Positions 1 to 8,115 of a DNA stretch of 59,624 nt are shown here, one piece after another. A program made the position numbers and the translations under genes. Source of the DNA: Candidatus Dadabacteria bacterium (GTDB lineage Bacteria > Desulfobacterota_D > UBA1144 > Nemesobacterales > CSP1-2); assembly GCA_040289575.1 (NCBI GenBank), contig PSLL01000009.1:40892-100515 (forward strand), written 5' to 3'. Numbering within the stretch: the first letter of the stretch is position 1; the number at the start of each line of letters is the position of its first letter. The notes under the pieces are model-generated. The model ran no database searches. It saw nothing but the letters and a program-made list of their open reading frames with translations, and had not been told where the DNA came from.

Positions 1-747
1 GCCACTAGCGCCGCGCCCGCCAGATAAATCCAATAAACGCGCGGCAGTCCTTCCGCTTTCACGTTCGGCACTTCCGTTTCCATCTCTTCTGGCCGTGGGT
101 AAATCCATCGCGCGATCAGCAGCAGGCTAAGACAGATGACTCCAGGCAAGAGCAGGAGGGCAAAGGCAAAACGATATTCACCGCGAATGGCAAGAACCGC
201 TGCCACAGCCAGCGGGCCGAATAGGGCACCGAATTGGTCGAGCGCCTCGTGCATACCAAACGCCCAGCCGTAACCGATTTCCTTGGCGGCATACGAGAGC
301 ATCACGTCGCGCGGCGGATTGCGCGTGGCGCGCCCGGCGCGTTCCAGAATGATCAGCGCAGCGGCGGTTGGCCACTTTGCCGACGCGCTCGAGAATAATT
401 AGCACGGCAGCCATCGGCCAGTTGCCCGCCAGCGCCAGCGCTGGCACCGAAAGCATTTGGATGAAGTAACCAAAGATCGTGATTGGCCAGAACTTGCCAG
501 TGACATCTGCAAGGCGGCCGGAAATGAGACGCAAACCGTAGCCAGCTAGTTCGCCAAAACCGGTGACGACGCCCACCACCGTGGCGCTAGTCTGCAAGAG
601 AGCGAGGTACGGGCCGAGAATACTGCGCGAACCCTCGTATGTAAAGTCGGCAAAGAAACTGAGTGCGCCAACCATCAAGACGAATTTCAGGGCAGACCTT
701 TTTAGGATGCTCTTTTTATCTTCCGGCAGAATTGATTGATATTCCAC
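1..747 (-). pseudogene. MFS transporter, frameshifted at a 46-nt diverged duplication; runs off the left edge
   Basis: Hydrophobic MFS N-terminus (SFFADFTYEGSRSILGPY...GELAGYGLRLISGRLAD). After ...WPMAAVLIILERVGK the MFS sequence resumes in another frame at 374 (WPTAAALIILERAGRATRNPPRDVMLSYAAKEIGYGWAFGMHEALDQFGA...), open to base 1. Confidence 0.85.
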
Positions 748-839
748 TGATATTCCTCTTTAGGAGTATCGCTCGAATGAAGTCGTTTAGGGATACCCAT
801 ATTGTCATACTCGAGTAAAAGTTTGCAGAAATGGTAGCA

Positions 840-2606
840 TTACGCGCTTTCTAAGGTATTCTCCAGCCTCTTTAGACTCAATCTAATTCGCTTTAACACA
901 TCAGCATGCTCTTTGAGGTTTTTCCTGGCATATGTAATCTTTTCTTCGCCAGCTCCACTTTCCAGAACAGCCCGCTCAAGAGCAGATTCAATTCCCATTA
1001 GCGTCGCATCAATCTTGGAAAACAGCTCATCACGAAACCTTCTGAGGTTCTTTTCTATGCGCTCTAGAAAATCGTACCTAATTCTTCCAGCATTTCTATC
1101 CAGCTGTTCTCTACACTGCTCGAGCATCCTACTTAGTACCACCCTTCGAAATAAGAATCCCGGCAGAGCAAATGGCAAGACTTCAAGGGCAAGATTGGTA
1201 TCGAATAGGGATTCAATCCTGTACTGGAGATAACCTTCTGCAGAGAGAGTTTCTACGCCGCTAAAGGTCTCTACTTTAATATCAAAGATGTCTGAGGATA
1301 GTTTCTTGATATATGTTATTATCTCATTGGCTTTGGATGAAAACCGTCTTGAGATGTTTTCAAACTCCCTATCCAATTTATCCTCTTCTAGAATACGCCA
1401 TTCATTGAAAATGCACTCAATCTCCTGCCTCATCGCACTGTCTATCGATTTTGACAACTCGATTTTGCTCTTATCTTTGTAAATTTTATAATGCCCTTCC
1501 ATCTTTTTTACAAGCTCAGGAGCCTTCTCTTCTACAAAATTTTTCAAATCAGATTCGAGCATAGAAATAAGCCTTTGCTCTTCCCCTTTTAGAAGATAGT
1601 CAAAATCCACTTTATCCAGACGGATTTTCTCCTTTTGAATATTAAACTCACTTATCTTCCTTCTAAGCTCTTCCAATGGAATGGAGATGGCTTTCACTTC
1701 AAGTTCTATAGACATCATTTCGTCTGAGAGGATTTTAAGAGTATTATTTAGTGCAGAACTGATAATGGCTTTGCCCTTTTCCTTCATAAGGAAATCATTT
1801 AAAGCCCTTTCAAAATCCGAAACCGAGCTGCGGTCACGCATTTCTTGATTGCCGTTTAACCTTCCTTCTAGGGCATACTTGGCAGATATAGGAAAGATTT
1901 TTATATCCTTTAGACCAACCTTCTGTTCAATTACGTGCTTCGTAAACTCAAGCGACTCAATTCTATCCTTTTCATCCATCTGGTCAATCTTATTTTGCAG
2001 AAAAAGGATTTTATCTACATATTTTCTTATATCATTCAGGAAATCATACTCAACCTGACTAATCGGCGGGTCTACACCGACTAGAAAAACTGCGGCATCT
2101 ACCTTGGACAGATAATTGTATGTAACGGCGGTATTGTGCTGATATGTTGAGCCGATTCCCGGAGTATCTATAATCTGAACCCCATCCCTTAAATAAGGGG
2201 AGTCATAATGAACCTCCACGTACTGCACCCCTTTTTGGTTTTCTGGATTACCCTTCTCAGTTACATAATCTGGAAGCTCATCAAGCGTTATTTCTTTTCT
2301 AGTCCCGTTATTAAATAAAACTTCAATGTGCAGGTTATTTCCATATTTAATCAGCGTAATAATAGATGTAAGCGGAACAACCCCTGTAGGAAGTAATCGG
2401 CTACCCAGCAGGGCATTGATGAGTGTAGTTTTCCCTCGTTTAAACTGTCCAAGAACGGCTAGATTGAAATGGCCCTCCAAGAGCTTCGCTATAAGTTCTT
2501 CCACAGCCCTTGTTACACCCTCATTCTTACAATGAGAGGCCAATTGGTATAAGTCTTTCAGGTTCTCTAACAGGTAGTTTCTTGCCTCTACATATGACTC
2601 CGGCAT
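840..2606 (-). CDS. Bacterial dynamin-like GTPase (Dynamin_N family), 588 aa
   Basis: G1 GQFKRGKTT, G2 region GVVPLTS, G3 DTPG, G4 NKID, followed by a long helical stalk. Confidence 0.92.
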   Translation of the reverse strand: MPESYVEARNYLLENLKDLYQLASHCKNEGVTRAVEELIAKLLEGHFNLAVLGQFKRGKTTLINALLGSRLLPTGVVPLTSIITLIKYGNNLHIEVLFNNGTRKEITLDELPDYVTEKGNPENQKGVQYVEVHYDSPYLRDGVQIIDTPGIGSTYQHNTAVTYNYLSKVDAAVFLVGVDPPISQVEYDFLNDIRKYVDKILFLQNKIDQMDEKDRIESLEFTKHVIEQKVGLKDIKIFPISAKYALEGRLNGNQEMRDRSSVSDFERALNDFLMKEKGKAIISSALNNTLKILSDEMMSIELEVKAISIPLEELRRKISEFNIQKEKIRLDKVDFDYLLKGEEQRLISMLESDLKNFVEEKAPELVKKMEGHYKIYKDKSKIELSKSIDSAMRQEIECIFNEWRILEEDKLDREFENISRRFSSKANEIITYIKKLSSDIFDIKVETFSGVETLSAEGYLQYRIESLFDTNLALEVLPFALPGFLFRRVVLSRMLEQCREQLDRNAGRIRYDFLERIEKNLRRFRDELFSKIDATLMGIESALERAVLESGAGEEKITYARKNLKEHADVLKRIRLSLKRLENTLESA

Positions 2607-2618
2607 AGAACAAATCTC

Positions 2619-3326
2619 CTATAGCGGATTATTCAAGTTTCCGTGCTCTAAAACCGTTACTAAACTGCTTTTGATATGAATATCTAGCGGGGTTGAAAGA
2701 ATCTTCTCTATTGTCTTATTTATATTGTATGTGACCCTCTTTATCTCCACATCGCCGTCATTCCATATGGCATAGGATGCCTTTGCCGGAATATCTTTTG
2801 ACTGGCCTACACTGCCGGGATTAATAATAGTCGTCCTATCTATTCTCTTAATCATGGAAACATGTGTATGACCAAGGAGCACAAAATCTGCGTCCAGCCC
2901 TTCTATTTCCTGTCGCCAGATATAATCGGGTGAATCGGGTGGTATATACTTAAATAGATTATCAGTCGGCGTTGCATGTGTAAGAAAAAACCTCCCTCCG
3001 CCAAGTTCCACCACCCTATTTAGGGGAAGGGAACCAAGATAATTAATTTCTCCCTCTTCGAGAATATTCCACATAAGCTCTCTTGTCTTTACAGACATCA
3101 TTTTGTATGCCGCACTGCATTTGCAGTCGGTCCTGAAGGCTACGGCGCTATCGTGGTTTCCGCGTATGACGGCATGGGCGTTCTTTTTTACAAAATCTAT
3201 GCACTCCCTCGGACTCGGGCCATAGTCAACTAAATCTCCCAAACAGAGAAGGTAGTCATACTCCTCTTTTATAGCCTCCAGCGACTCAATATTTGCGTGT
3301 ATATCCGAGATAATTAGAATCCTCAT
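2619..3326 (-). CDS. Metallophosphoesterase (calcineurin-like, YfcE/MJ0936 type)
   Basis: Motifs SDIH, GDLVDYG, GNHD, THA, GHTH, NPGSVG. Confidence 0.93.
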   Translation of the reverse strand: MRILIISDIHANIESLEAIKEEYDYLLCLGDLVDYGPSPRECIDFVKKNAHAVIRGNHDSAVAFRTDCKCSAAYKMMSVKTRELMWNILEEGEINYLGSLPLNRVVELGGGRFFLTHATPTDNLFKYIPPDSPDYIWRQEIEGLDADFVLLGHTHVSMIKRIDRTTIINPGSVGQSKDIPAKASYAIWNDGDVEIKRVTYNINKTIEKILSTPLDIHIKSSLVTVLEHGNLNNPL

Positions 3327-3353
3327 TGAAATATCCCCCTTTATTCCAATATC

Positions 3354-4085
3354 CTAGAGTTCCTTACCGACAAAGAATTTAATAGCCCTGATCCAGGCTG
3401 TTTGTTCTTTACCCTTGGATTCATGCGAATAGCGATAATCTGTTTTGCGCCAATACTCTTCTAAATCGTCATTTAGCTTTCTAAGCACCTCAACCTGCTT
3501 TTGAATCAGAATTTCTAAAGACTTGGGAGATGCGAATTTAATGGCTTGGTTAAAGTGATTCATACACAGCCCCTGAGAATTATAGTAAAGCCCTTTAACC
3601 CTCTCGTCTTCTAAATCCATTATGAGATTATGAATCCATTCGGTCGCTTTGTTGGAAATGGATTTGCAAATCGGACAAGTCTCTGACGGCTCGAGTTGTT
3701 TCTTAGCCTCCTCTAAGCGTTGTATGTGTTTTTTACCCGTTATTTTTCTGATTACTTTATTAATCCTGCTTTCAGGTTTATATTTCTTCAATTCTTTGTA
3801 TAATCTTCCCAATTTCACCAGCGCCGATTTGACCAGATATTCATATACTACAGACATTTCATGCCCCTTTCCCATGCGAATCAAGTCCCAAGAATGCCTA
3901 TTACAAAAACCTCTGGAATTCAGTGTCCTATCTATCCAGGTGGTGTCATGGTAGTACTCAATAAAATACCAGCGATAAAAATATCTTAAGTCCTCATCGC
4001 AGAGCAGGCACACAGGACAATCATTGCCATCTCTCAATGCCTCCAATAATGACGACGATTTCCTAATGAAACCCAGTGTTGCCAT
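3354..4085 (-). CDS. DUF6062-like putative zinc-binding protein with two CxxC...CxxH repeats
   Basis: CPVC...RGFCNRH and CPIC...QGLCMNH. Family name recalled from the pattern, not searched. Confidence 0.75.
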   Translation of the reverse strand: MATLGFIRKSSSLLEALRDGNDCPVCLLCDEDLRYFYRWYFIEYYHDTTWIDRTLNSRGFCNRHSWDLIRMGKGHEMSVVYEYLVKSALVKLGRLYKELKKYKPESRINKVIRKITGKKHIQRLEEAKKQLEPSETCPICKSISNKATEWIHNLIMDLEDERVKGLYYNSQGLCMNHFNQAIKFASPKSLEILIQKQVEVLRKLNDDLEEYWRKTDYRYSHESKGKEQTAWIRAIKFFVGKEL

Positions 4086-4101
4086 GGAATTTAATCCCCG
4101 C

Positions 4102-4545
4102 TCACACTTTATTTAAAATATATTTCTCCACCATATCGCTATCTGTTCTATCTTCTTGTTCATTACGATCATCTGTAATCTTGAGGATATTTTTAAAGCT
4201 TCTATTAATCGCTTTTGCTCCCGTCAGTTTAATTGCCAGCGTCTTATTCCTAGAAAAGGTTTCAAAGCACTCATATCCTAAAGCCGCATTTCTGCTCGAA
4301 AGCCTTCTATAGTCCAGGGTTACATCCTCTAGCTCCGAGACCAGTTTATTTTTTCTGATTGTGAGTTCTGATAGCTCTTTTTCTATCTCATCTACTCTAT
4401 CAATTACATCAACCCCAAATGATATAACCCAACCGAATACTTCTTCCTCAGTCCAATCCATTTTAACTGGCGCTTTCTTAATCTCTTCATAAAGCCCTAA
4501 AGGAAGTGCTACAGAAAGTTTTCTTTGTTTATAACTCATTGCCAT
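4102..4545 (-). CDS. Hypothetical protein: RHH-like N-terminus plus coiled coil
   Basis: 147 aa, co-oriented and tightly packed in the operon. LSVALPLGLYEEIKK strand-helix pattern, then heptad-rich segment. Confidence 0.7.
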   Translation of the reverse strand: MAMSYKQRKLSVALPLGLYEEIKKAPVKMDWTEEEVFGWVISFGVDVIDRVDEIEKELSELTIRKNKLVSELEDVTLDYRRLSSRNAALGYECFETFSRNKTLAIKLTGAKAINRSFKNILKITDDRNEQEDRTDSDMVEKYILNKV

Positions 4546-4551
4546 CTAATT

Positions 4552-4923
4552 TCACTTCTGATCTGCGGAGCTTTGCTGTCTTACCAGTACTTTCAGTTCC
4601 TTATTTTCAGAGTTCAATATTTCCAATCTCTTATAGATATAATCGCTATCCCTTTGGGATTCGATACAGAGTTTTTCGAGTCTACTGTTCTCTTCAATAA
4701 AACGTTTAATTTCTCTCCACAGGTTCCCTATCTTCCCAGATAGGGAGGCGTTTTCTTCTTTAATCATGTCAATTTCAAGTTTAAGCAGTCCCGCGCTTAT
4801 TATTTTTTGTATTGCACCTGTTTCTTCGAGTTCGTGAGTCTTTATAAAATTCAGGACTCGTCCATAAACACCCGCCGGGATATTAACAATAAACGTGATT
4901 TGGTCAGGATATTTACGCTTCAC
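4552..4923 (-). CDS. Hypothetical protein: RHH-like N-terminus plus coiled coil, paralog of 4102-4545
   Basis: GTG start with GAGG upstream. FIVNIPAGVY...IISAG aligns ungapped with LSVALPLGLY...VISFG. Confidence 0.7.
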   Translation of the reverse strand: MKRKYPDQITFIVNIPAGVYGRVLNFIKTHELEETGAIQKIISAGLLKLEIDMIKEENASLSGKIGNLWREIKRFIEENSRLEKLCIESQRDSDYIYKRLEILNSENKELKVLVRQQSSADQK

Positions 4924-4969
4924 TCCAACCTCTTATAGAGGCTTTTTCTATCAATGATATTCTCATTTA

Positions 4970-5416
4970 TCACCTTTGCGATTTATTCGATTTAGCTTCT
5001 ATCCTCAAGCTTATTTCAATGAGTTCCTCTACCTTGGGATCTCAGAAATCGGCAAGTTCTTTTGGTGCCTTACCATATCTATCCAGCCCGCTACTTCTCA
5101 TATCTGAAAGCGCTTCCCCAATATGTGCGGCTTCTCCCCGCACCTTCCTTACCACTGATTCCTCTTGTGTCTGAAGATTAAGCCCACCTTTTAACTCTCT
5201 GATAATCCTTCGCATCTCTTCTATATCCTGGAGTATCGAATTTCGAACCTCATCATCCAGGTGGTCGTCTAATTTATAAGTTATTCTCTCTCTATTGTCA
5301 GTAATTAATGCCTCCTCAATCCGCTCAAGGGATTTTTCGAGCATATACAAACCTACTATTATGACTCTCTGATGGTTTGGACTAATCTCTATCACCTTAT
5401 TAAGGCTCCTCATCAT
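4970..5416 (-). pseudogene. Helical 'RYG' protein with in-frame TGA at 5044-5042 (paralog of 6951-7385)
   Basis: After TGA the frame continues DPKVEELIEISLRIEAKSNKSQR to a stop at 4972-4970. The TGA aligns with Leu of FLD in the paralog. Confidence 0.75.
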
Positions 5417-5482
5417 CTTAATCGAAAAAAATTACTGCACTCCCGATGTCCCTAAGAAATGCCAAGTTTGATAGGAGTATAT

Positions 5483-6454
5483 TTATCCATTTTTACTCAG
5501 TCTTTCTATAAGTTCCTTCAAAGACTCGATAACTGCCTCCGAGAGATATACCTTTTCTCCTCTAACATTCTCTACCTTTCTCTCATTTAGCGCGTTCTCA
5601 ATGTATGGTAAAGCCGCCGAATTGAGTTCTGATAGGGCTTCGATGCACAAACCGTGAGTGTACCAATCACCCTCATTCAATCCCGATATGAGTTCTGGAA
5701 TAACTTTTATGATTTTATCTTTGTCGATGCCGATCTTTAACAGAGATAAAGCCGCATATAACCTGACTTCCCATTCTTCATCCTCCAGTCTCTTGAGTAG
5801 TGGCCGGATGGCTTCAGGGTCACCGATTTCTCCCAGCAGTCTGGTAGCCTCGACGCGTCTTCTTATACTCGGATTTGTTTCATATATAGAAGGGGTGTAG
5901 TTTCGCCTAGCCAATGCCTCTATAAGTAATGGAACAGCATCTTTACCAAATTTAAGCAGAGCTTTACCAGCTGTCTCCCGTGAATAGTCATCCTCAAGCA
6001 TTTCAACTATATAAGGCATAGCTCTTTTTTCCTTGAAGTTCGAAAGAGCCTCAGCTGCACCCATTAAATGGTTCTCTTTTAGACACCTAAGTAGTGGCTC
6101 TATCGCCCTCTCATAGCCTAAGATTGCAAGCTGCCTGGCGGCCTGATTTCTTACAGTTTCTTCGGCAAGGCGAACCTGTGGGTCAAGCGGTTCTAAGTCG
6201 CACAAATCCAGTACCTGTATAAGCCCTTCGCTAGACTCTTCACCACCGATCATTCCAAGGGCTTCGGCAGCCAGGCAGCGCGGCTCCGAGAAGATAGATG
6301 GAGAAGAAAGTAAAAGTCCAATAATGGGTTTTACAGCCACCCTTCCGCATTTAATTACTTCAAGCAACGCACTTGTATTGCTTCCGAGATTATTAAGCCC
6401 CTCTACTAATCTCTCTATTTCTTCTCTATGGATCCTACACATTAAACTCGGCAC
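5483..6454 (-). CDS. HEAT-repeat (PBS-lyase-like) protein, 323 aa
   Basis: Repeated units: AAEALGMIGG, VEATRLLGEIGDPEAIRPLLKRLEDEEWEVRLYAALSL. Confidence 0.9.
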   Translation of the reverse strand: MPSLMCRIHREEIERLVEGLNNLGSNTSALLEVIKCGRVAVKPIIGLLLSSPSIFSEPRCLAAEALGMIGGEESSEGLIQVLDLCDLEPLDPQVRLAEETVRNQAARQLAILGYERAIEPLLRCLKENHLMGAAEALSNFKEKRAMPYIVEMLEDDYSRETAGKALLKFGKDAVPLLIEALARRNYTPSIYETNPSIRRRVEATRLLGEIGDPEAIRPLLKRLEDEEWEVRLYAALSLLKIGIDKDKIIKVIPELISGLNEGDWYTHGLCIEALSELNSAALPYIENALNERKVENVRGEKVYLSEAVIESLKELIERLSKNG

Positions 6455-6939
6455 CTCCTTGATATAACGGTTAGTTTATCCAATGAAGCACGTGCCGATT
6501 CCCTAACATAATGACTGTGATCCCCGATTGCCCTTTTTAAAGCCTCTATCACCTCTTCTTGTCCATCAAAGTTGCCAAGGACGGCAGCCGCCTTGCCTCT
6601 TACCAGGAACGAAGGGTTATTCAGCATCTTAATTAAGAACGGCACCGCCCTTTCATCCCCAATTTTGCCTACGGCTTCGACAACCTCCTCCATGAGAAAG
6701 TAATCATTGGTCCTGTTAAGTAGTTCAATCAGTGGTCTTATGGCTGCCCTCTCACGCCTCTCACCTAATATATAGCAGACCCTGTATACGGTAGAGCGCT
6801 CGGAATGATTGAGAGAATCTATGAGTTTCTCTGTGAAGCTTTTCTCAACCCATTCCTCTACATTTCCTCCGCACTGCAGACAGGTTTTTGTATTCTTTGA
6901 AATCTCATTCCAGCAAAAGGGGCAAAAGTAGTGTATCAT
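6442..6939 (-). CDS. Zinc-ribbon plus HEAT-repeat protein, 165 aa
   Basis: N-terminal CPFC...CLQC, then AVGKIGDERAVPFLIKML and VRGKAAAVLG repeats. Overlaps the next gene by 13 nt. Confidence 0.88.
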   Translation of the reverse strand: MIHYFCPFCWNEISKNTKTCLQCGGNVEEWVEKSFTEKLIDSLNHSERSTVYRVCYILGERRERAAIRPLIELLNRTNDYFLMEEVVEAVGKIGDERAVPFLIKMLNNPSFLVRGKAAAVLGNFDGQEEVIEALKRAIGDHSHYVRESARASLDKLTVISRRCRV

Positions 6940-6950
6940 GGTTCCCCTCC

Positions 6951-7385
6951 TTATGTTCCCGTATCCTTATGTTTTGAACTGGCAATCTCGCAAATTTCAT
7001 CAATCAGATTCATGATTCTATCTACCTGAGTATCTAGAAACTCTCGAAGCTCATCCGGAACCTCTCCGTAGCCACGAAGCCTTTTTGATTTTATCTCTTC
7101 CAGATTTACCCGCTGAATGGTCATGGCGCCGAGTATTCGGTTTTTTATTTCTTCTCTTCGTTTCTCTAAATTCAATTTTTGAGATACATAGGTTATCAAC
7201 CCTCTTATCTCATCTATGCGTTTTAGAATCAATGCCTTTTCCCAAGGTGAGAGGTTATTTAAGGTTTCGATCATAGCTTTTCTTTGATTGGCACCTCTTA
7301 TAATCTCTTCTACACCGGAGATTGTATCTTCAAGAACCTCCATAGATACAGAAAGACGGGCTTTATGGTTTCGTGGTACTTCCAT
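6951..7385 (-). CDS. Helical hypothetical protein with LRGYGEVP motif
   Basis: 144 aa, AGGA RBS. NH...LE N-terminus and SKRLRGYGEVPDELREFLD C-terminus shared with 4970-5416. Confidence 0.78.
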   Translation of the reverse strand: MEVPRNHKARLSVSMEVLEDTISGVEEIIRGANQRKAMIETLNNLSPWEKALILKRIDEIRGLITYVSQKLNLEKRREEIKNRILGAMTIQRVNLEEIKSKRLRGYGEVPDELREFLDTQVDRIMNLIDEICEIASSKHKDTGT

Positions 7386-7395
7386 GATTATCCTC

Positions 7396-7546
7396 TCACA
7401 AATCCAATTCTTTCTTATTATTGTAGAGCTTATATCCGTCCATGATTACCTTCTCAGCTTCCTCCGCTCCCCTGTAGCCAAATGTCATTAACTATTTCTG
7501 GTGGGTGTTTTCCAAATGGTAAGTCAACGAGATTTCTTCTCTCCAT
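7396..7546 (-). pseudogene. ppa: Collapsed remnant of a family I soluble inorganic pyrophosphatase (N- and C-termini only)
   Basis: AAGGAGG RBS, then MERRNLVDLPFGKHPPEIVN (PPase LPxGKxPPE start) joined out of frame to TFGYRGAEEAEKVIMDGYKLYNNKK (PPase-like final helix). Confidence 0.6.
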
Positions 7547-7865
7547 GGCATCTCAACCTCCTTATTAAAAAACCTGGAATGATATTTCACAAACAAAGGA
7601 TGATTCTTTCTCAGTTCGAGATTCACTACAGGACTCCTGCAAAATGGAGAATGGCTCTCCACTTTAGGTTCAGAAGTAATACCTAGATTCTTAAATTTAG
7701 ATGGAGAACTTCGATAGCCCGGCCCCTGTCCGATTATGAATAGGGCATAAGAGAAAAAACATCTGACCTTATTTAAATTATTTGAATAGTACATCTCCTA
7801 CCCCTTATAAACTTCAAGAAGGCATTATGATAAGCCATATTAGCCTTCCTCCAGAATCTATTTGG

Positions 7866-7920
7866 GTAGGAGTTATTAACTGCCGAAAGGGTCAGTAATT
7901 ATAAGGTGAACTCCATCACC
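7866..7920 (-). promoter_or_regulatory. Fluoride riboswitch aptamer (crcB motif)
   Basis: Minus strand GGTGATGGAGTTCACC-TTATAATT-ACTGACCCTTTCGGCAGT-TAATAACTCCTAC: P1 GGUGA/UCACC, pseudoknot GGAGU/ACUCC, P2 ACUG/CAGU, 3' UAAUAACUCCUAC close to the URAUGACNCCUAC consensus. Confidence 0.87.
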
Positions 7921-7939
7921 TATAATAGATAGTATAGAA

Positions 7940-7948
7940 ATTATACCA
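7940..7948 (-). promoter_or_regulatory. Extended -10 promoter (TGgTATAAT) upstream of the riboswitch
   Basis: Perfect TGnTATAAT about 20 nt 5' of the aptamer; -35 weak. Confidence 0.5.
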
Positions 7949-8115
7949 TAAGTCATCTATTTATGCCACTCTTTTATAGACTAAGGTCTTAAAGATTATA
8001 AGGAGCTGATGATAAGAATCCTCTTTAGCTACGGTCTAATTAAGATAAAAACCAAACTTACAGACAGTTGATAAAATTTGATATGGCCTCATATGGATTG
8101 TAAAATCTTTGACCT

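Follow-up and report, generated by a model that had tools for sequence, protein, structure and literature searches.

A fluoride riboswitch with a probable long-range translational platform and a leader ORF upstream of a dynamin-like GTPase module

Introduction

On the minus strand of the DNA analysed here (59.6 kb, hereafter the window), a fluoride aptamer is followed by a distant strand that can pair with its 3' tail, and this distant strand runs directly into an AUG. How such an arrangement is read out is the question that this locus raises. The first-pass annotation, made from the letters alone, had pointed out that no clean U-tract follows the helix and that its GGAG abuts the ATG with zero spacing. 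Both observations hold beyond this genome, as a U-tract is absent after the helix in all 14 leaders compared, and the ATG (7794-7792) is conserved in the relatives.

The comparison set of 14 leaders consists of the window and 13 relatives that have diverged to 45-88% identity in the neighbouring gene. All 13 relatives keep the same design: a 6-bp pseudoknot that shares CUCC with the long-range helix, a hairpin spacer of 58-67 nt, the AUG directly after the helix, and no U-tract. The metagenome-assembled genomes of this clade come from soil and are variously labelled Thermodesulfobacteriota or Deltaproteobacteria. Metagenome copies of the exact locus (L001-L005) have leaders that are 100% identical, and therefore give no comparative information. 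The locus sequence is present in soil DNA metagenomes only, and no RNA-seq runs contain it. The reading developed below, which is considered probable, is that a long minus-strand mRNA begins with a translational ON switch whose platform is long-range. The features that bear on it are collected in Table 1.

Table 1. Features of the leader and of the operon behind it, with positions in the window.
Feature	Position	Strand	Basis or detail
Promoter-like site	7940..7969	-	GTGGCA, 18-nt spacer, TG-extended TATAAT; consensus match only
Fluoride riboswitch aptamer (crcB motif, RF01734)	7860..7929	-	Covariance-model match
Aptamer P1	7920-7917/7908-7905	-	
Aptamer P3	about 7896-7879	-	
Pseudoknot	7914-7909 with 7874-7869	-	GGAGUU (P1 loop) with AACUCC (3' tail)
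Long-range helix, 5' strand CUCCUACCC, anti-SD	7864..7872	-	CUCC overlap with pseudoknot strand
Structured spacer, single extended imperfect hairpin	7804..7863	-	AUAGAUU/AGUUUAU, AGGAAGGC/GCCUUCUU, apical stem
Weak candidate upstream ORF, 21 codons	7773..7838	-	GGAGG 7852-7848, 9 nt, ATG 7838; apical part of spacer hairpin
Long-range helix, 3' strand GGGUAGGAG	7795..7803	-	GGAG here abuts AUG
ORF-X, 100 codons from helix-abutting AUG	7492..7794	-	Open-frame conservation
Family-I inorganic pyrophosphatase gene (ppa) remnant	7396..7563	-	SD AAGGAGG 7563-7557, ATG 7546
144-aa helical protein ('LRGYGEVP' family), first intact cargo gene	6951..7385	-	
Rest of co-oriented operon	840..6939	-	Pfam assignments
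Zn-ribbon + HEAT	6939-6442	-	Pfam
HEAT	6454-5483	-	Pfam
124-aa paralogue of 144-aa gene	5416-5042	-	Paralogy, E 5e-11
Two coiled-coil proteins	4923-4552, 4545-4102	-	
DUF6062	4085-3354	-	Pfam
Metallophosphoesterase	3326-2619	-	Pfam
Dynamin-like GTPase	2606-840	-	Pfam

The fluoride aptamer

The suspected fluoride riboswitch was recovered by Rfam cmscan as an RF01734 match at 7929-7860 (minus strand), which scores 44.4 bits against a gathering score of 34 (E 4.4e-9), covers the full model (positions 1-64 of 64), and is the sole Rfam match in the 59.6-kb window. A local Rfam scan of the leader left the score unchanged (E 4.5e-11) and detected no second RNA element at E <= 1. The P1 and P3 stems are 95-97% paired across the 14 leaders, with a compensatory change (UA to CG) in P1 and another (AU to GC), plus wobble changes, in P3. 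The pseudoknot is paired at 6/6 positions in every leader, L021 keeping the pairing by means of G-U wobbles. An A had also been noticed in place of the usual G; it is present (UUAAUAAC here, CUGAUGAC in the Rfam consensus), GAUAA is common in independent aptamers, and a first-position A is found in 7 of the 14 clade leaders, including L036 with its intact operon. This substitution is ordinary variation. Judged by its sequence, this is a true fluoride riboswitch; it belongs to a known class, its aptamer is itself ordinary, and the switch would be expected to respond to fluoride.

Upstream of the aptamer, the site at 7969-7940 is the top sigma-70 match of the minus strand between positions 1 and 8000 (10/12 plus TG), no better promoter-like site being found in that interval. 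According to this consensus match, transcription would start near 7933, just 5' of the aptamer.

The long-range helix and its spacer

The proposed platform rests on the complementarity of CTCCTACCC (7872-7864) with GGGTAGGAG (7803-7795), which is a perfect 9 bp on the minus strand, as first described, and on a nested hairpin (GAAGGC 7848-7843 / GCCTTC 7823-7818) whose coordinates were likewise confirmed. Competition of this helix with the pseudoknot was also part of that description; both strands concerned (7874-7869 and 7872-7864) contain the CUCC, and helix and pseudoknot are thus predicted to be mutually exclusive. The 9-mer GGGTAGGAG occurs only once in the whole window, both strands considered, where 0.34 copies are expected, which argues that its position some 60 nt downstream of the complementary strand is not due to chance. 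The minimum free energy (MFE) fold of 7935-7760 contains the outer helix together with the nested hairpins (-50.7 kcal/mol, z = -3.94), and none of 200 shuffles folded as well.

The helix is kept in 14/14 leaders and appears in every MFE fold with 7-8 of 8 pairs. It is 97.3% paired across the set, its changes being only wobble-compatible or terminal, and CUCCUACC is invariant in all 14. For the structure as a whole, 7 pairs show double-sided changes in the 14-leader alignment, compared with 2.7 in shuffles (0/500), and 93% of the paired cells are filled, compared with 39-53% for slid controls. No double-sided compensatory change falls in the long-range helix itself in this alignment, as the aptamer leaves its 5' strand no freedom to vary; the 3' strand could, on the sequences compared, be conserved for its Shine-Dalgarno (SD) function alone.

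The gap between the aptamer tail and the SD strand measures 58-67 nt in the 14 leaders, and this spacer folds as one hairpin in each of them, with a z-score that is always negative (mean -1.98). Its nested stems carry compensatory changes among the leaders, and in L021 a different sequence adopts the same architecture. When closed, the resulting three-tier hairpin of about 78 nt has a folding energy of -24 to -32 kcal/mol across the clade, and its stability greatly exceeds that of the pseudoknot. Folding of successive prefixes indicates that about 70 nt must be transcribed beyond the tail before the final helix becomes possible.

The ribosome-binding region and ORF-X

An AUG directly follows the helix in 14/14 leaders. 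The GGAG lies at -4 to -1 relative to it, inside the 3' strand of the helix, and its zero spacing is explained by a second, upstream SD element at -10 to -6: GAGGU in most relatives and GGGGU in the window, where it spans 7804-7800 and is made of G7804 plus the helix 3' strand. The SD and the AUG of a maintained reading frame thus lie within or adjoin the strand that pairs with the aptamer, which is the arrangement of SD-sequestering platforms. In a thermodynamic model, the predicted probability that the SD is unpaired rises from 0.22 in the free fold to 0.45 once both aptamer and tail are removed from pairing, a roughly two-fold and model-dependent effect. A cruder mimic of the ligand-bound state, in which only the tail was blocked, gave mixed numbers, other aptamer segments being mispaired with the SD.

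The frame that begins at this AUG, here called ORF-X, is open for 77-123 codons in 13/14 loci (the probability of an open frame given shuffled composition is about 0.001 each) and for only 33 codons in the most divergent locus, L021. An antisense gene was considered as the cause of the open frame and rejected, since every antisense frame has stops; indeed, all five other frames over ORF-X carry them. ORF-X has dN/dS values of 0.28-0.55 in close pairs, with one pair at 1.1, its dN exceeds that of the neighbouring gene about threefold, and its indels are mostly multiples of three. The family comprises only 15 clusters, all labelled hypothetical, and no Pfam match was obtained for it. Codon usage scores -0.01 per codon, compared with 0.08-0.38 in the neighbouring genes, and this is the best of its three frames. 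Because of its atypical codon usage and fast evolution, ORF-X may be translated only weakly. It is a maintained, fast-evolving frame and most likely what the switch controls directly at the level of translation. In relatives, it ends at a stop +4 to +55 nt beyond the ppa AUG, and where ppa is absent the overlap is with the 144-aa gene and amounts to 23 nt. The position of the stop just inside the next gene corresponds to a translational-coupling geometry. Masking of the ppa SD by the ORF-X codons NHPLF (AAUCAUCCUUU) was also considered and rejected, the predicted pairings being inconsistent between loci.

The downstream genes

Inorganic pyrophosphatase (PPase) is a fluoride-inhibited enzyme. 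In relatives its gene lies directly downstream of the aptamer, with intact 180-aa copies at the same position in L014, L015, L017, L019, L020, and L036 (PF00719 E about 1e-55 for the L014 and L019 copies) and an internally deleted copy of 116 aa in L007. In the window only a remnant is left, which consists of the first ~20 codons (MERRNLVDLPFGKHPPEIVN) followed by a frame-shifted C-terminal piece (7488-7396), and no full-length PF00719 domain was found in 7546-7396. As read from these sequences, the stretch is a pseudogene remnant, and the ancestral first cargo would have been ppa, which was deleted to remnants in this genome. Enolase is found in the same operons of relatives, and DUF190 and enolase occur behind sister aptamers. 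PPase and enolase are among the commonest cargo of fluoride riboswitches (PMC11139923; PMC5533749).

The first intact gene now encodes the 144-aa protein, for which 36 homologues were found, and a fluoride aptamer lies upstream of this family in nearly all 29 related loci. Its homology extends to a 688-aa dynamin-like protein of L028, whose N-terminal ~140 residues it matches (hhalign 95.4%). The AF2 model of the 144-aa protein is a helical bundle (pLDDT 79.6), for which a fold search returned no PDB match (best E = 1.2). Among the Pfam assignments of the operon there is no fluoride exporter gene, and the switch, by its present gene context, appears to head only the 144-aa/HEAT/DUF6062/metallophosphoesterase/dynamin-like GTPase module. 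Distant metagenome loci, Terriglobia-labelled and related ones, also have these operon families downstream of fluoride aptamers, which speaks for a place of the module in the fluoride response.

Expression output and alternative explanations

Three observations make a translational output most likely at the level of sequence: the AUG is invariant, no U-tract is present, and a spaced SD-like GAGGU lies in the sequestered strand. The terminator logic of crcB switches, with which the first-pass annotation had compared this locus, does exist among the aptamers of the data set. In L011, L022, L028:2812, and L029:6326, the tails pair with GGUAGGAG- or CAGGAG-type invaders, and a U-tract then follows. 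Since the same tail and invader sequences make true terminators there, and since 5 U occur in the 12 nt following the AUG of the window, the long hairpin might be taken for a non-canonical intrinsic terminator despite its poor U-tract. This is scarcely credible, as a terminator scan of positions 1-8000 found no such site anywhere on the minus strand, terminator stems do not look like an interrupted hairpin of 60 nt, and the U fraction after the helix is 0.08-0.33 in relatives (up to 0.42 overall), where it is the AUG and the ORF that are conserved. A GC-rich tail hairpin directly before a U-tract, the mark of an intrinsic terminator, was not found; the AUG stands in that place. A primary transcriptional output through Rho deserves more weight and is still rather unlikely. 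In that case naked RNA would be exposed by the helix, or by a lack of ribosomes on ORF-X, and transcription terminated before the cargo, SD sequestration being either the trigger or incidental. An operon of about 7 kb needs control and yet has no intrinsic terminator, the ~300-nt weakly constrained ORF between switch and cargo is what would be expected of a polarity relay, and several translational riboswitches (of the Mg2+, FMN, and lysine classes) also use Rho. Against this, ORF-X is neither notably C-rich nor G-poor (C 16-22%, G 10-21%) and has no clear Rho-loading signal, and no rut-like element was identified in it. Rho action would moreover be compatible with translational control and downstream of it, an added layer more than a true alternative.

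Within the spacer, a short frame (GGAGG 7852-7848, ATG 7838) could itself be the real sensor, its translation opening or closing the ORF-X start. Its start triplet is ATG in 11, TTG in 1, and GTG in 2 of the 14 leaders and never a non-start codon, a GGAGG-type purine tract precedes it by about 9 nt, and the frame, read by eye, is open for 10-23 codons in all 14, ending in the window 22 nt past the ORF-X AUG. This role is nevertheless very unlikely: by the same reading, its register with the downstream sequence is not kept and shifts between close relatives, which implies that the peptide is not conserved; a 20-codon open frame would arise by chance about 40% of the time, at a rough estimate; SD and start lie inside a stable hairpin; and the purine tract is not SD-like in L019, L021, and L038. 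It is more improbable still that the switch is a relic left after the loss of ppa, conserved through recent common ancestry only. That gene is indeed deleted in the window, and the leader is 100% identical in all metagenome copies, which offer no independent evidence of constraint. However, the aptamer exceeds the threshold by a wide margin, its pseudoknot, P1, and P3 are preserved, and at least five relatives without ppa (L008, L009, L010, L021, and L041; 45-74% identity) keep aptamer, helix, and AUG, and, L021 excepted, also ORF-X. The downstream families are, in addition, linked to aptamers in distant Terriglobia-labelled and related metagenome loci in which ppa is missing from that position.

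Proposed mechanism

For the translational ON switch, the following sequence of events may be envisaged. Without fluoride, the tail CUCCUACCC (7872-7864) would pair with GGGUAGGAG (7803-7795) and close the hairpin of about 78 nt, which would bury the SD (-10 to -6) and the adjoining GGAG up to the AUG of ORF-X. With fluoride, AACUCC would be locked to GGAGUU of the P1 loop in the pseudoknot, which would close the tail to invasion; the SD strand would then be single-stranded and ribosomes could start at AUG 7794. Given how much the complete hairpin outweighs the pseudoknot in stability, the choice between them probably falls while the RNA is still being transcribed, and the structured spacer of ~60 nt would delay the invading strand and lengthen the time available for ligand binding. 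Long platform spacers are known to sensitise kinetically controlled riboswitches, crcB included (PMC10996619). Translation of ORF-X would hand the decision on to the downstream genes, and the cover of ribosomes would probably shield the long transcript from premature termination. The dominance of the OFF hairpin counts against this mechanism, since a finished mRNA must somehow stay ON, and it raises the question of how it would do so.

Relation to known systems

The window element resembles the RF01734 switches of the crcB class (e.g., the Thermotoga petrophila aptamer and Bacillus cereus crcB) in its full model, P1, P3, and 6-bp pseudoknot, in a CUCCUAC tail contested by pseudoknot and expression platform, with a presumed ON logic, and in the cargo of its relatives, which includes PPase and enolase. 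It differs in its platform. In the B. cereus type, as in L011, L022, and L029, the invader comes after a short loop and precedes a U-tract, forming an intrinsic terminator; here, the invader lies 58-67 nt away across a structured hairpin, lacks a U-tract, and is itself the ribosome-binding site. Nor does the window operon contain a fluoride exporter gene. SD-sequestering platforms (in ZTP, crcB, and other switches) likewise have an aptamer strand that doubles as anti-SD, and the ligand exposes the SD, as it presumably would here; a long spacer between aptamer and invader is one natural way to delay nucleation of the platform (PMC10996619). In contrast to these, the spacer of the window is a conserved, stable hairpin and not a loop or simple tether, and the controlled start is that of a fast-evolving ORF of ~90 codons that overlaps the next gene, not that of the cargo.

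With respect to gene content, the closest parallel is the fluoride-riboswitch-controlled ppaC-uspA-eno-gpmA-crcB operon of Enterobacter cloacae FRM (PMC5533749). PPase-first multigene operons with enolase are found in L036, L037, and L041. On the other hand, the PPase of this clade is of family I (PF00719) and not the Mn-dependent ppaC, it is deleted in the window, and crcB is missing. A literature search found no described fluoride-resistance role for the 144-aa, HEAT, DUF6062, metallophosphoesterase, or dynamin-like genes, and no paper that pairs 'fluoride riboswitch' with 'dynamin'. Relays through leader ORFs exist in riboswitch and attenuator leaders, for instance mgtL in the Mg2+ leader of mgtA. 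Like mgtL, ORF-X stands between a sensor RNA and its cargo and could act through coupling or Rho. Unlike mgtL, it is much longer than a classic leader peptide (77-123 codons), shows no recognised sensing codons or stalling motif, and lies downstream of the platform, being controlled by it and not part of the sensing.

Biological significance

Taken at the level of sequence comparison, the locus holds a riboswitch of a known class whose platform, probably translational, is a long-range variant, unusually long and conserved, and is followed by a leader ORF. A more specific proposal, put forward tentatively and with less conviction than the translational switch itself, is that of a two-stage output, in which the ~60-nt spacer would act as a timer and the ~90-codon ORF as a relay (through coupling and protection from polarity), with ppa discarded and an uncharacterised module driven in its stead. 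An anti-SD:SD helix of 8-9 bp across a hairpin of 58-67 nt would be a natural case of a ligand-binding window set by a spacer, and a maintained, fast-evolving ORF between switch and cargo suggests a relay of a kind (coupling or polarity) rarely documented for riboswitches. The switch has outlived its textbook cargo and still heads the dynamin-like GTPase/HEAT/DUF6062/phosphoesterase module. If this reading is correct, the locus would offer a clean natural handle on the role of a bacterial dynamin under fluoride stress, and the module a simple, reporter-testable entry point to the fluoride response.

The Aptamer and Its Relatives

The proposal of the first-pass annotation that the leader carries a fluoride riboswitch is borne out by the RF01734 covariance model, which matches at full length with a score over the gathering value. 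RF01734 was the sole match in an Rfam scan of the window, and a permissive Rfam scan of 7380-7990 revealed no second RNA element. Judged from sequence, the element is a genuine fluoride riboswitch, and fluoride responsiveness is predicted. Transcription from a promoter-like site with an extended -10 is predicted to start a few bases 5′ of the aptamer, and the promoter-like sites found elsewhere on the minus strand from 1 to 8000 are all no better. The A in place of G in the aptamer junction, which had been singled out as unusual, is present but represents ordinary variation: GAUAA is common among unrelated fluoride aptamers, and A occupies the first position in 7 of the 14 leaders of the clade, one of them with an intact operon.

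Features of the leader and operon (window positions)
Feature	Position	Strand	Details
Sigma-70-like promoter, extended -10	7969-7940	-	GTGGCA, 18 nt, TG-TATAAT
Fluoride riboswitch aptamer	7929-7860	-	RF01734, whole model; 44.4 bits (gathering score 34), E 4.4e-9
Aptamer 3′ strand (tail)	7872-7864	-	CTCCTACCC
Downstream strand (invader)	7803-7795	-	GGGTAGGAG
Nested hairpin strands	7848-7843, 7823-7818	-	GAAGGC, GCCTTC
ORF-X	starts at ATG 7794	-	100 codons; no Pfam match
ppa remnant	7396-7563	-	SD AAGGAGG 7563-7557; ~20 codons from ATG 7546 (MERRNLVDLPFGKHPPEIVN); frame-shifted C-terminal piece
144-aa protein	7385-6951	-	no Pfam family
Two HEAT-repeat proteins	downstream	-	Pfam
124-aa paralogue of 144-aa protein	5416-5042	-	26% identity, E 5e-11
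Two coiled-coil proteins	downstream in operon	-	predicted
DUF6062, calcineurin-like phosphoesterase, dynamin-family GTPase	downstream in operon	-	Pfam

Copies of the locus in five metagenome contigs have leaders that are 100% identical and therefore provide no comparative information; a search of runs and samples found the leader sequence solely in soil DNA metagenomes. Related loci were retrieved with an alignment of the 36 homologues of the 144-aa protein (45-86% identity), which drew 29 loci out of collections of genomes and metagenomes, and four more were obtained by exact-protein look-up. Rfam places a fluoride aptamer upstream of the 144-aa homologue in nearly all of the 29 loci (300-970 nt upstream in close relatives), and this linkage extends to loci at 22-40% identity, some in Terriglobia-labelled MAGs, with the aptamer ~100-130 nt upstream. 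The switch-operon unit is conserved, whereas its upstream neighbourhood is not. Syntenic related loci (L007, L008, L009, L010, and L041) were found in MAGs assigned to Spirochaetia, Ignavibacteriales, Deltaproteobacteria, and Thermodesulfobacteriota; part of this taxonomy is probably unreliable, or else the operon passes from lineage to lineage. The divergent gene upstream is a GNAT acetyltransferase in the window, whereas two related loci (L036 and L040) have a divergent pair encoding a GAF-domain protein and an inositol monophosphatase-family protein.

Conservation of the Expression Platform

The first-pass annotation had described a helix between the tail and a downstream invader strand, brought together by a nested hairpin and competing with the pseudoknot, with GGAG abutting the ATG at zero spacing. 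Re-reading of the minus strand located all of these strands and the GGAG-ATG contact, and the structural reading was correct. Across 14 leaders, the tail can pair in either the pseudoknot or the helix. The GGGTAGGAG 9-mer is unique in 59.6 kb (0.34 copies expected), and the MFE fold of 7935-7760 gives the long-range helix with nested hairpins (z = -3.94; 0/200 shuffles as stable).

The platform was compared in an alignment of 14 distinct leaders. In every one, the tail (CUCCUACC) is invariant, the pseudoknot GGAGUU:AACUCC retains 6/6 pairs, and G(A/G)GGU(A/G)GGAG is followed immediately by an invariant AUG, with a tail-to-invader gap of 58-67 nt. RNAalifold recovered P1, P3, the long-range helix, and two nested stems. 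In a formal pair count, 93.4% of cells are paired, versus 39-53% for slid 3′ partners, and double-sided changes occur at 7 pairs, versus 2.7 in shuffles (0/500 reach 7); these compensatory changes are located in P1, P3, and the nested stems. The long-range helix itself (columns 51-58 with 128-135) is 97.3% paired, its unpaired cells being two at the terminal pair and one at an internal pair, and its changes are one-sided and wobble-compatible only (UA to UG in 4+1 sequences). Double-sided changes are lacking there because the aptamer dictates the 5′ strand, and the support for this helix is therefore conservation, not covariation. When leaders are folded singly, the outer helix forms in each (7-8 of 8 pairs), and each spacer is one extended hairpin, stabler than dinucleotide shuffles in 14/14 cases (mean z -1.98). 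The spacer of L021, a divergent relative, has a wholly different sequence (UUAAAAGGACA...UGUCUUUUUAA) and the same architecture.

The Leader Open Reading Frame

The frame opened by this AUG, ORF-X, runs without a stop for 77-123 codons in 13 of the 14 loci and for 33 codons in L021, the most divergent; the chance of such an open frame, given the composition of each sequence, is ~0.001. The other two sense frames contain 2-14 stops, antisense frames have stops in nearly every locus, and indels are mostly multiples of three. Values of dN/dS are 0.28-0.55 for the less saturated pairs (1.1 for one pair) and 0.12-0.3 for the 144-aa gene, whose dN ORF-X exceeds ~3-fold. Scored against the codon usage of the window, frame 0 (-0.01) outranks the other two frames (-0.56 and -0.68) and falls below the neighbouring genes (0.08-0.38). 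A profile search returned only 15 clusters, all "hypothetical" and without a Pfam domain. ORF-X so appears to be a frame that is translated under weak constraint and restricted to its lineage. The ORF-X stop always falls slightly inside the following gene: it lies +4 to +55 nt past the AUG of ppa, the family-I inorganic pyrophosphatase (PPase) gene, in relatives, and in L041, without ppa, ORF-X overlaps the 144-aa gene by 23 nt. This arrangement suggests translational coupling, and ORF-X would relay control to the downstream genes. Masking of the ppa SD by conserved codons of ORF-X was tested as an idea and rejected.

Output of the Switch

Translational control best accounts for the output, in that the pseudoknot strand would sequester the ribosome-binding site of ORF-X across a conserved ~60-nt hairpin. 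Within the sequestered strand, positions -10 to -6 hold an SD-like GAGGU (GGGGU in the window, 7804-7800). This spacing is normal and resolves the paradox of a GGAG in contact with the AUG. A simple model gives 22% unpaired for the SD region in the free fold versus 45% with the ligand-bound aptamer and the tail withdrawn; a cruder earlier folding constraint on SD accessibility was uninformative.

In several independent aptamers (L011, L022, L028:2812, and L029:6326), the same tail pairs over a short loop with a GGUAGGAG- or CAGGAG-type invader, and a U-tract follows; these are classic intrinsic terminators. In contrast, the clade of the window keeps the invader, but AUG replaces the U-tract and the ~60-nt hairpin is inserted. 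The absence of a clean U-tract, remarked on earlier, holds 3′ of the helix and AUG in all 14 leaders; no terminator-like site was found on the minus strand from 1 to 8000, and the base composition of ORF-X gives no clear Rho-dependent termination signal. Ribosomes on ORF-X may in addition protect the transcript from termination by Rho. A possible upstream ORF inside the spacer hairpin, 21 codons long in the window, is a weak alternative: a GGAGG tract (7852-7848) precedes ATG 7838 by 9 nt in the apical part of the hairpin (7773-7852, minus strand). All 14 leaders have ATG, TTG, or GTG as the start triplet, and an ORF of 19-23 codons is possible, but the frame is not conserved among them.

Because the hairpin of the platform (-24 to -32 kcal/mol) far exceeds the 6-bp pseudoknot in stability, translational control of ORF-X would be exerted co-transcriptionally (kinetically). 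Prefix folding indicates that the final helix is impossible until ~70 nt past tail synthesis. As published, long aptamer-invader spacers slow the nucleation of the platform and make kinetically controlled riboswitches, crcB among them, more sensitive (PMC10996619). Before the nested hairpin and the final helix form, the spacer GGAG of the window (7852-7848) is predicted to pair for a time with tail CUCC (7869-7872, minus strand), and it might serve early on as a decoy or an invader. L015, L017, L019, L021, and L036 do not conserve this motif.

Loss of ppa and the Remaining Cargo

An intact 180-aa family-I PPase (PF00719, E about 1e-55) lies between the aptamer and the 144-aa gene in six relatives (L014, L015, L017, L019, L020, and L036), and enolase ends the operon in several. 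Both enzymes are classically inhibited by fluoride and belong to the most common cargo of fluoride riboswitches (PMC11139923; PMC5533749), so that this context confirms the aptamer assignment. Since ppa is intact in relatives and a remnant here, the window genome has lost its ancestral first cargo. The closest relative, L007, has an internally deleted copy of 116 aa, and decay is also seen in L038 (149 aa), L040 (a 54-aa fragment), and L008, L009, L010, and L021 (short remnants), with ppa apparently absent in L041. These data suggest that ppa was lost repeatedly while the switch and the remaining operon were kept.

In that remaining operon, which has no crcB or CLC-F gene, the 144-aa and 124-aa genes of the "LRGYGEVP" family flank both HEAT-repeat genes. 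The 144-aa family is modelled as a helical bundle (pLDDT 79.6), for which a search of the PDB found no structural relative. In L028, a 688-aa dynamin-like protein is encoded directly behind a fluoride aptamer, and its N-terminal ~140 residues share homology with the 144-aa family (hhalign 95.4%); Terriglobia-labelled L013 encodes a similar 720-aa protein, and Dynamin_N occurs in the L028 and the L013 protein. The L028 aptamers separately head this domain-dynamin fusion, a DUF6062-like protein, a DUF190-metallophosphoesterase-enolase operon, and an NADH-dehydrogenase-like membrane subunit. The families of this island are the same as those forming the single operon of the window. On L028 (1-8351) and L029 (Ga0326728_10002398 and Ga0335085_10008657), four fluoride aptamers in 8 kb make up a dense fluoride-response island. 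Among the papers of the literature library searched, none joins dynamin with fluoride riboswitches.

The platform is a variant within a known riboswitch class, and the element is not of a new kind; more unusual biologically are the leader ORF and a cargo that lacks ppa and includes a dynamin.
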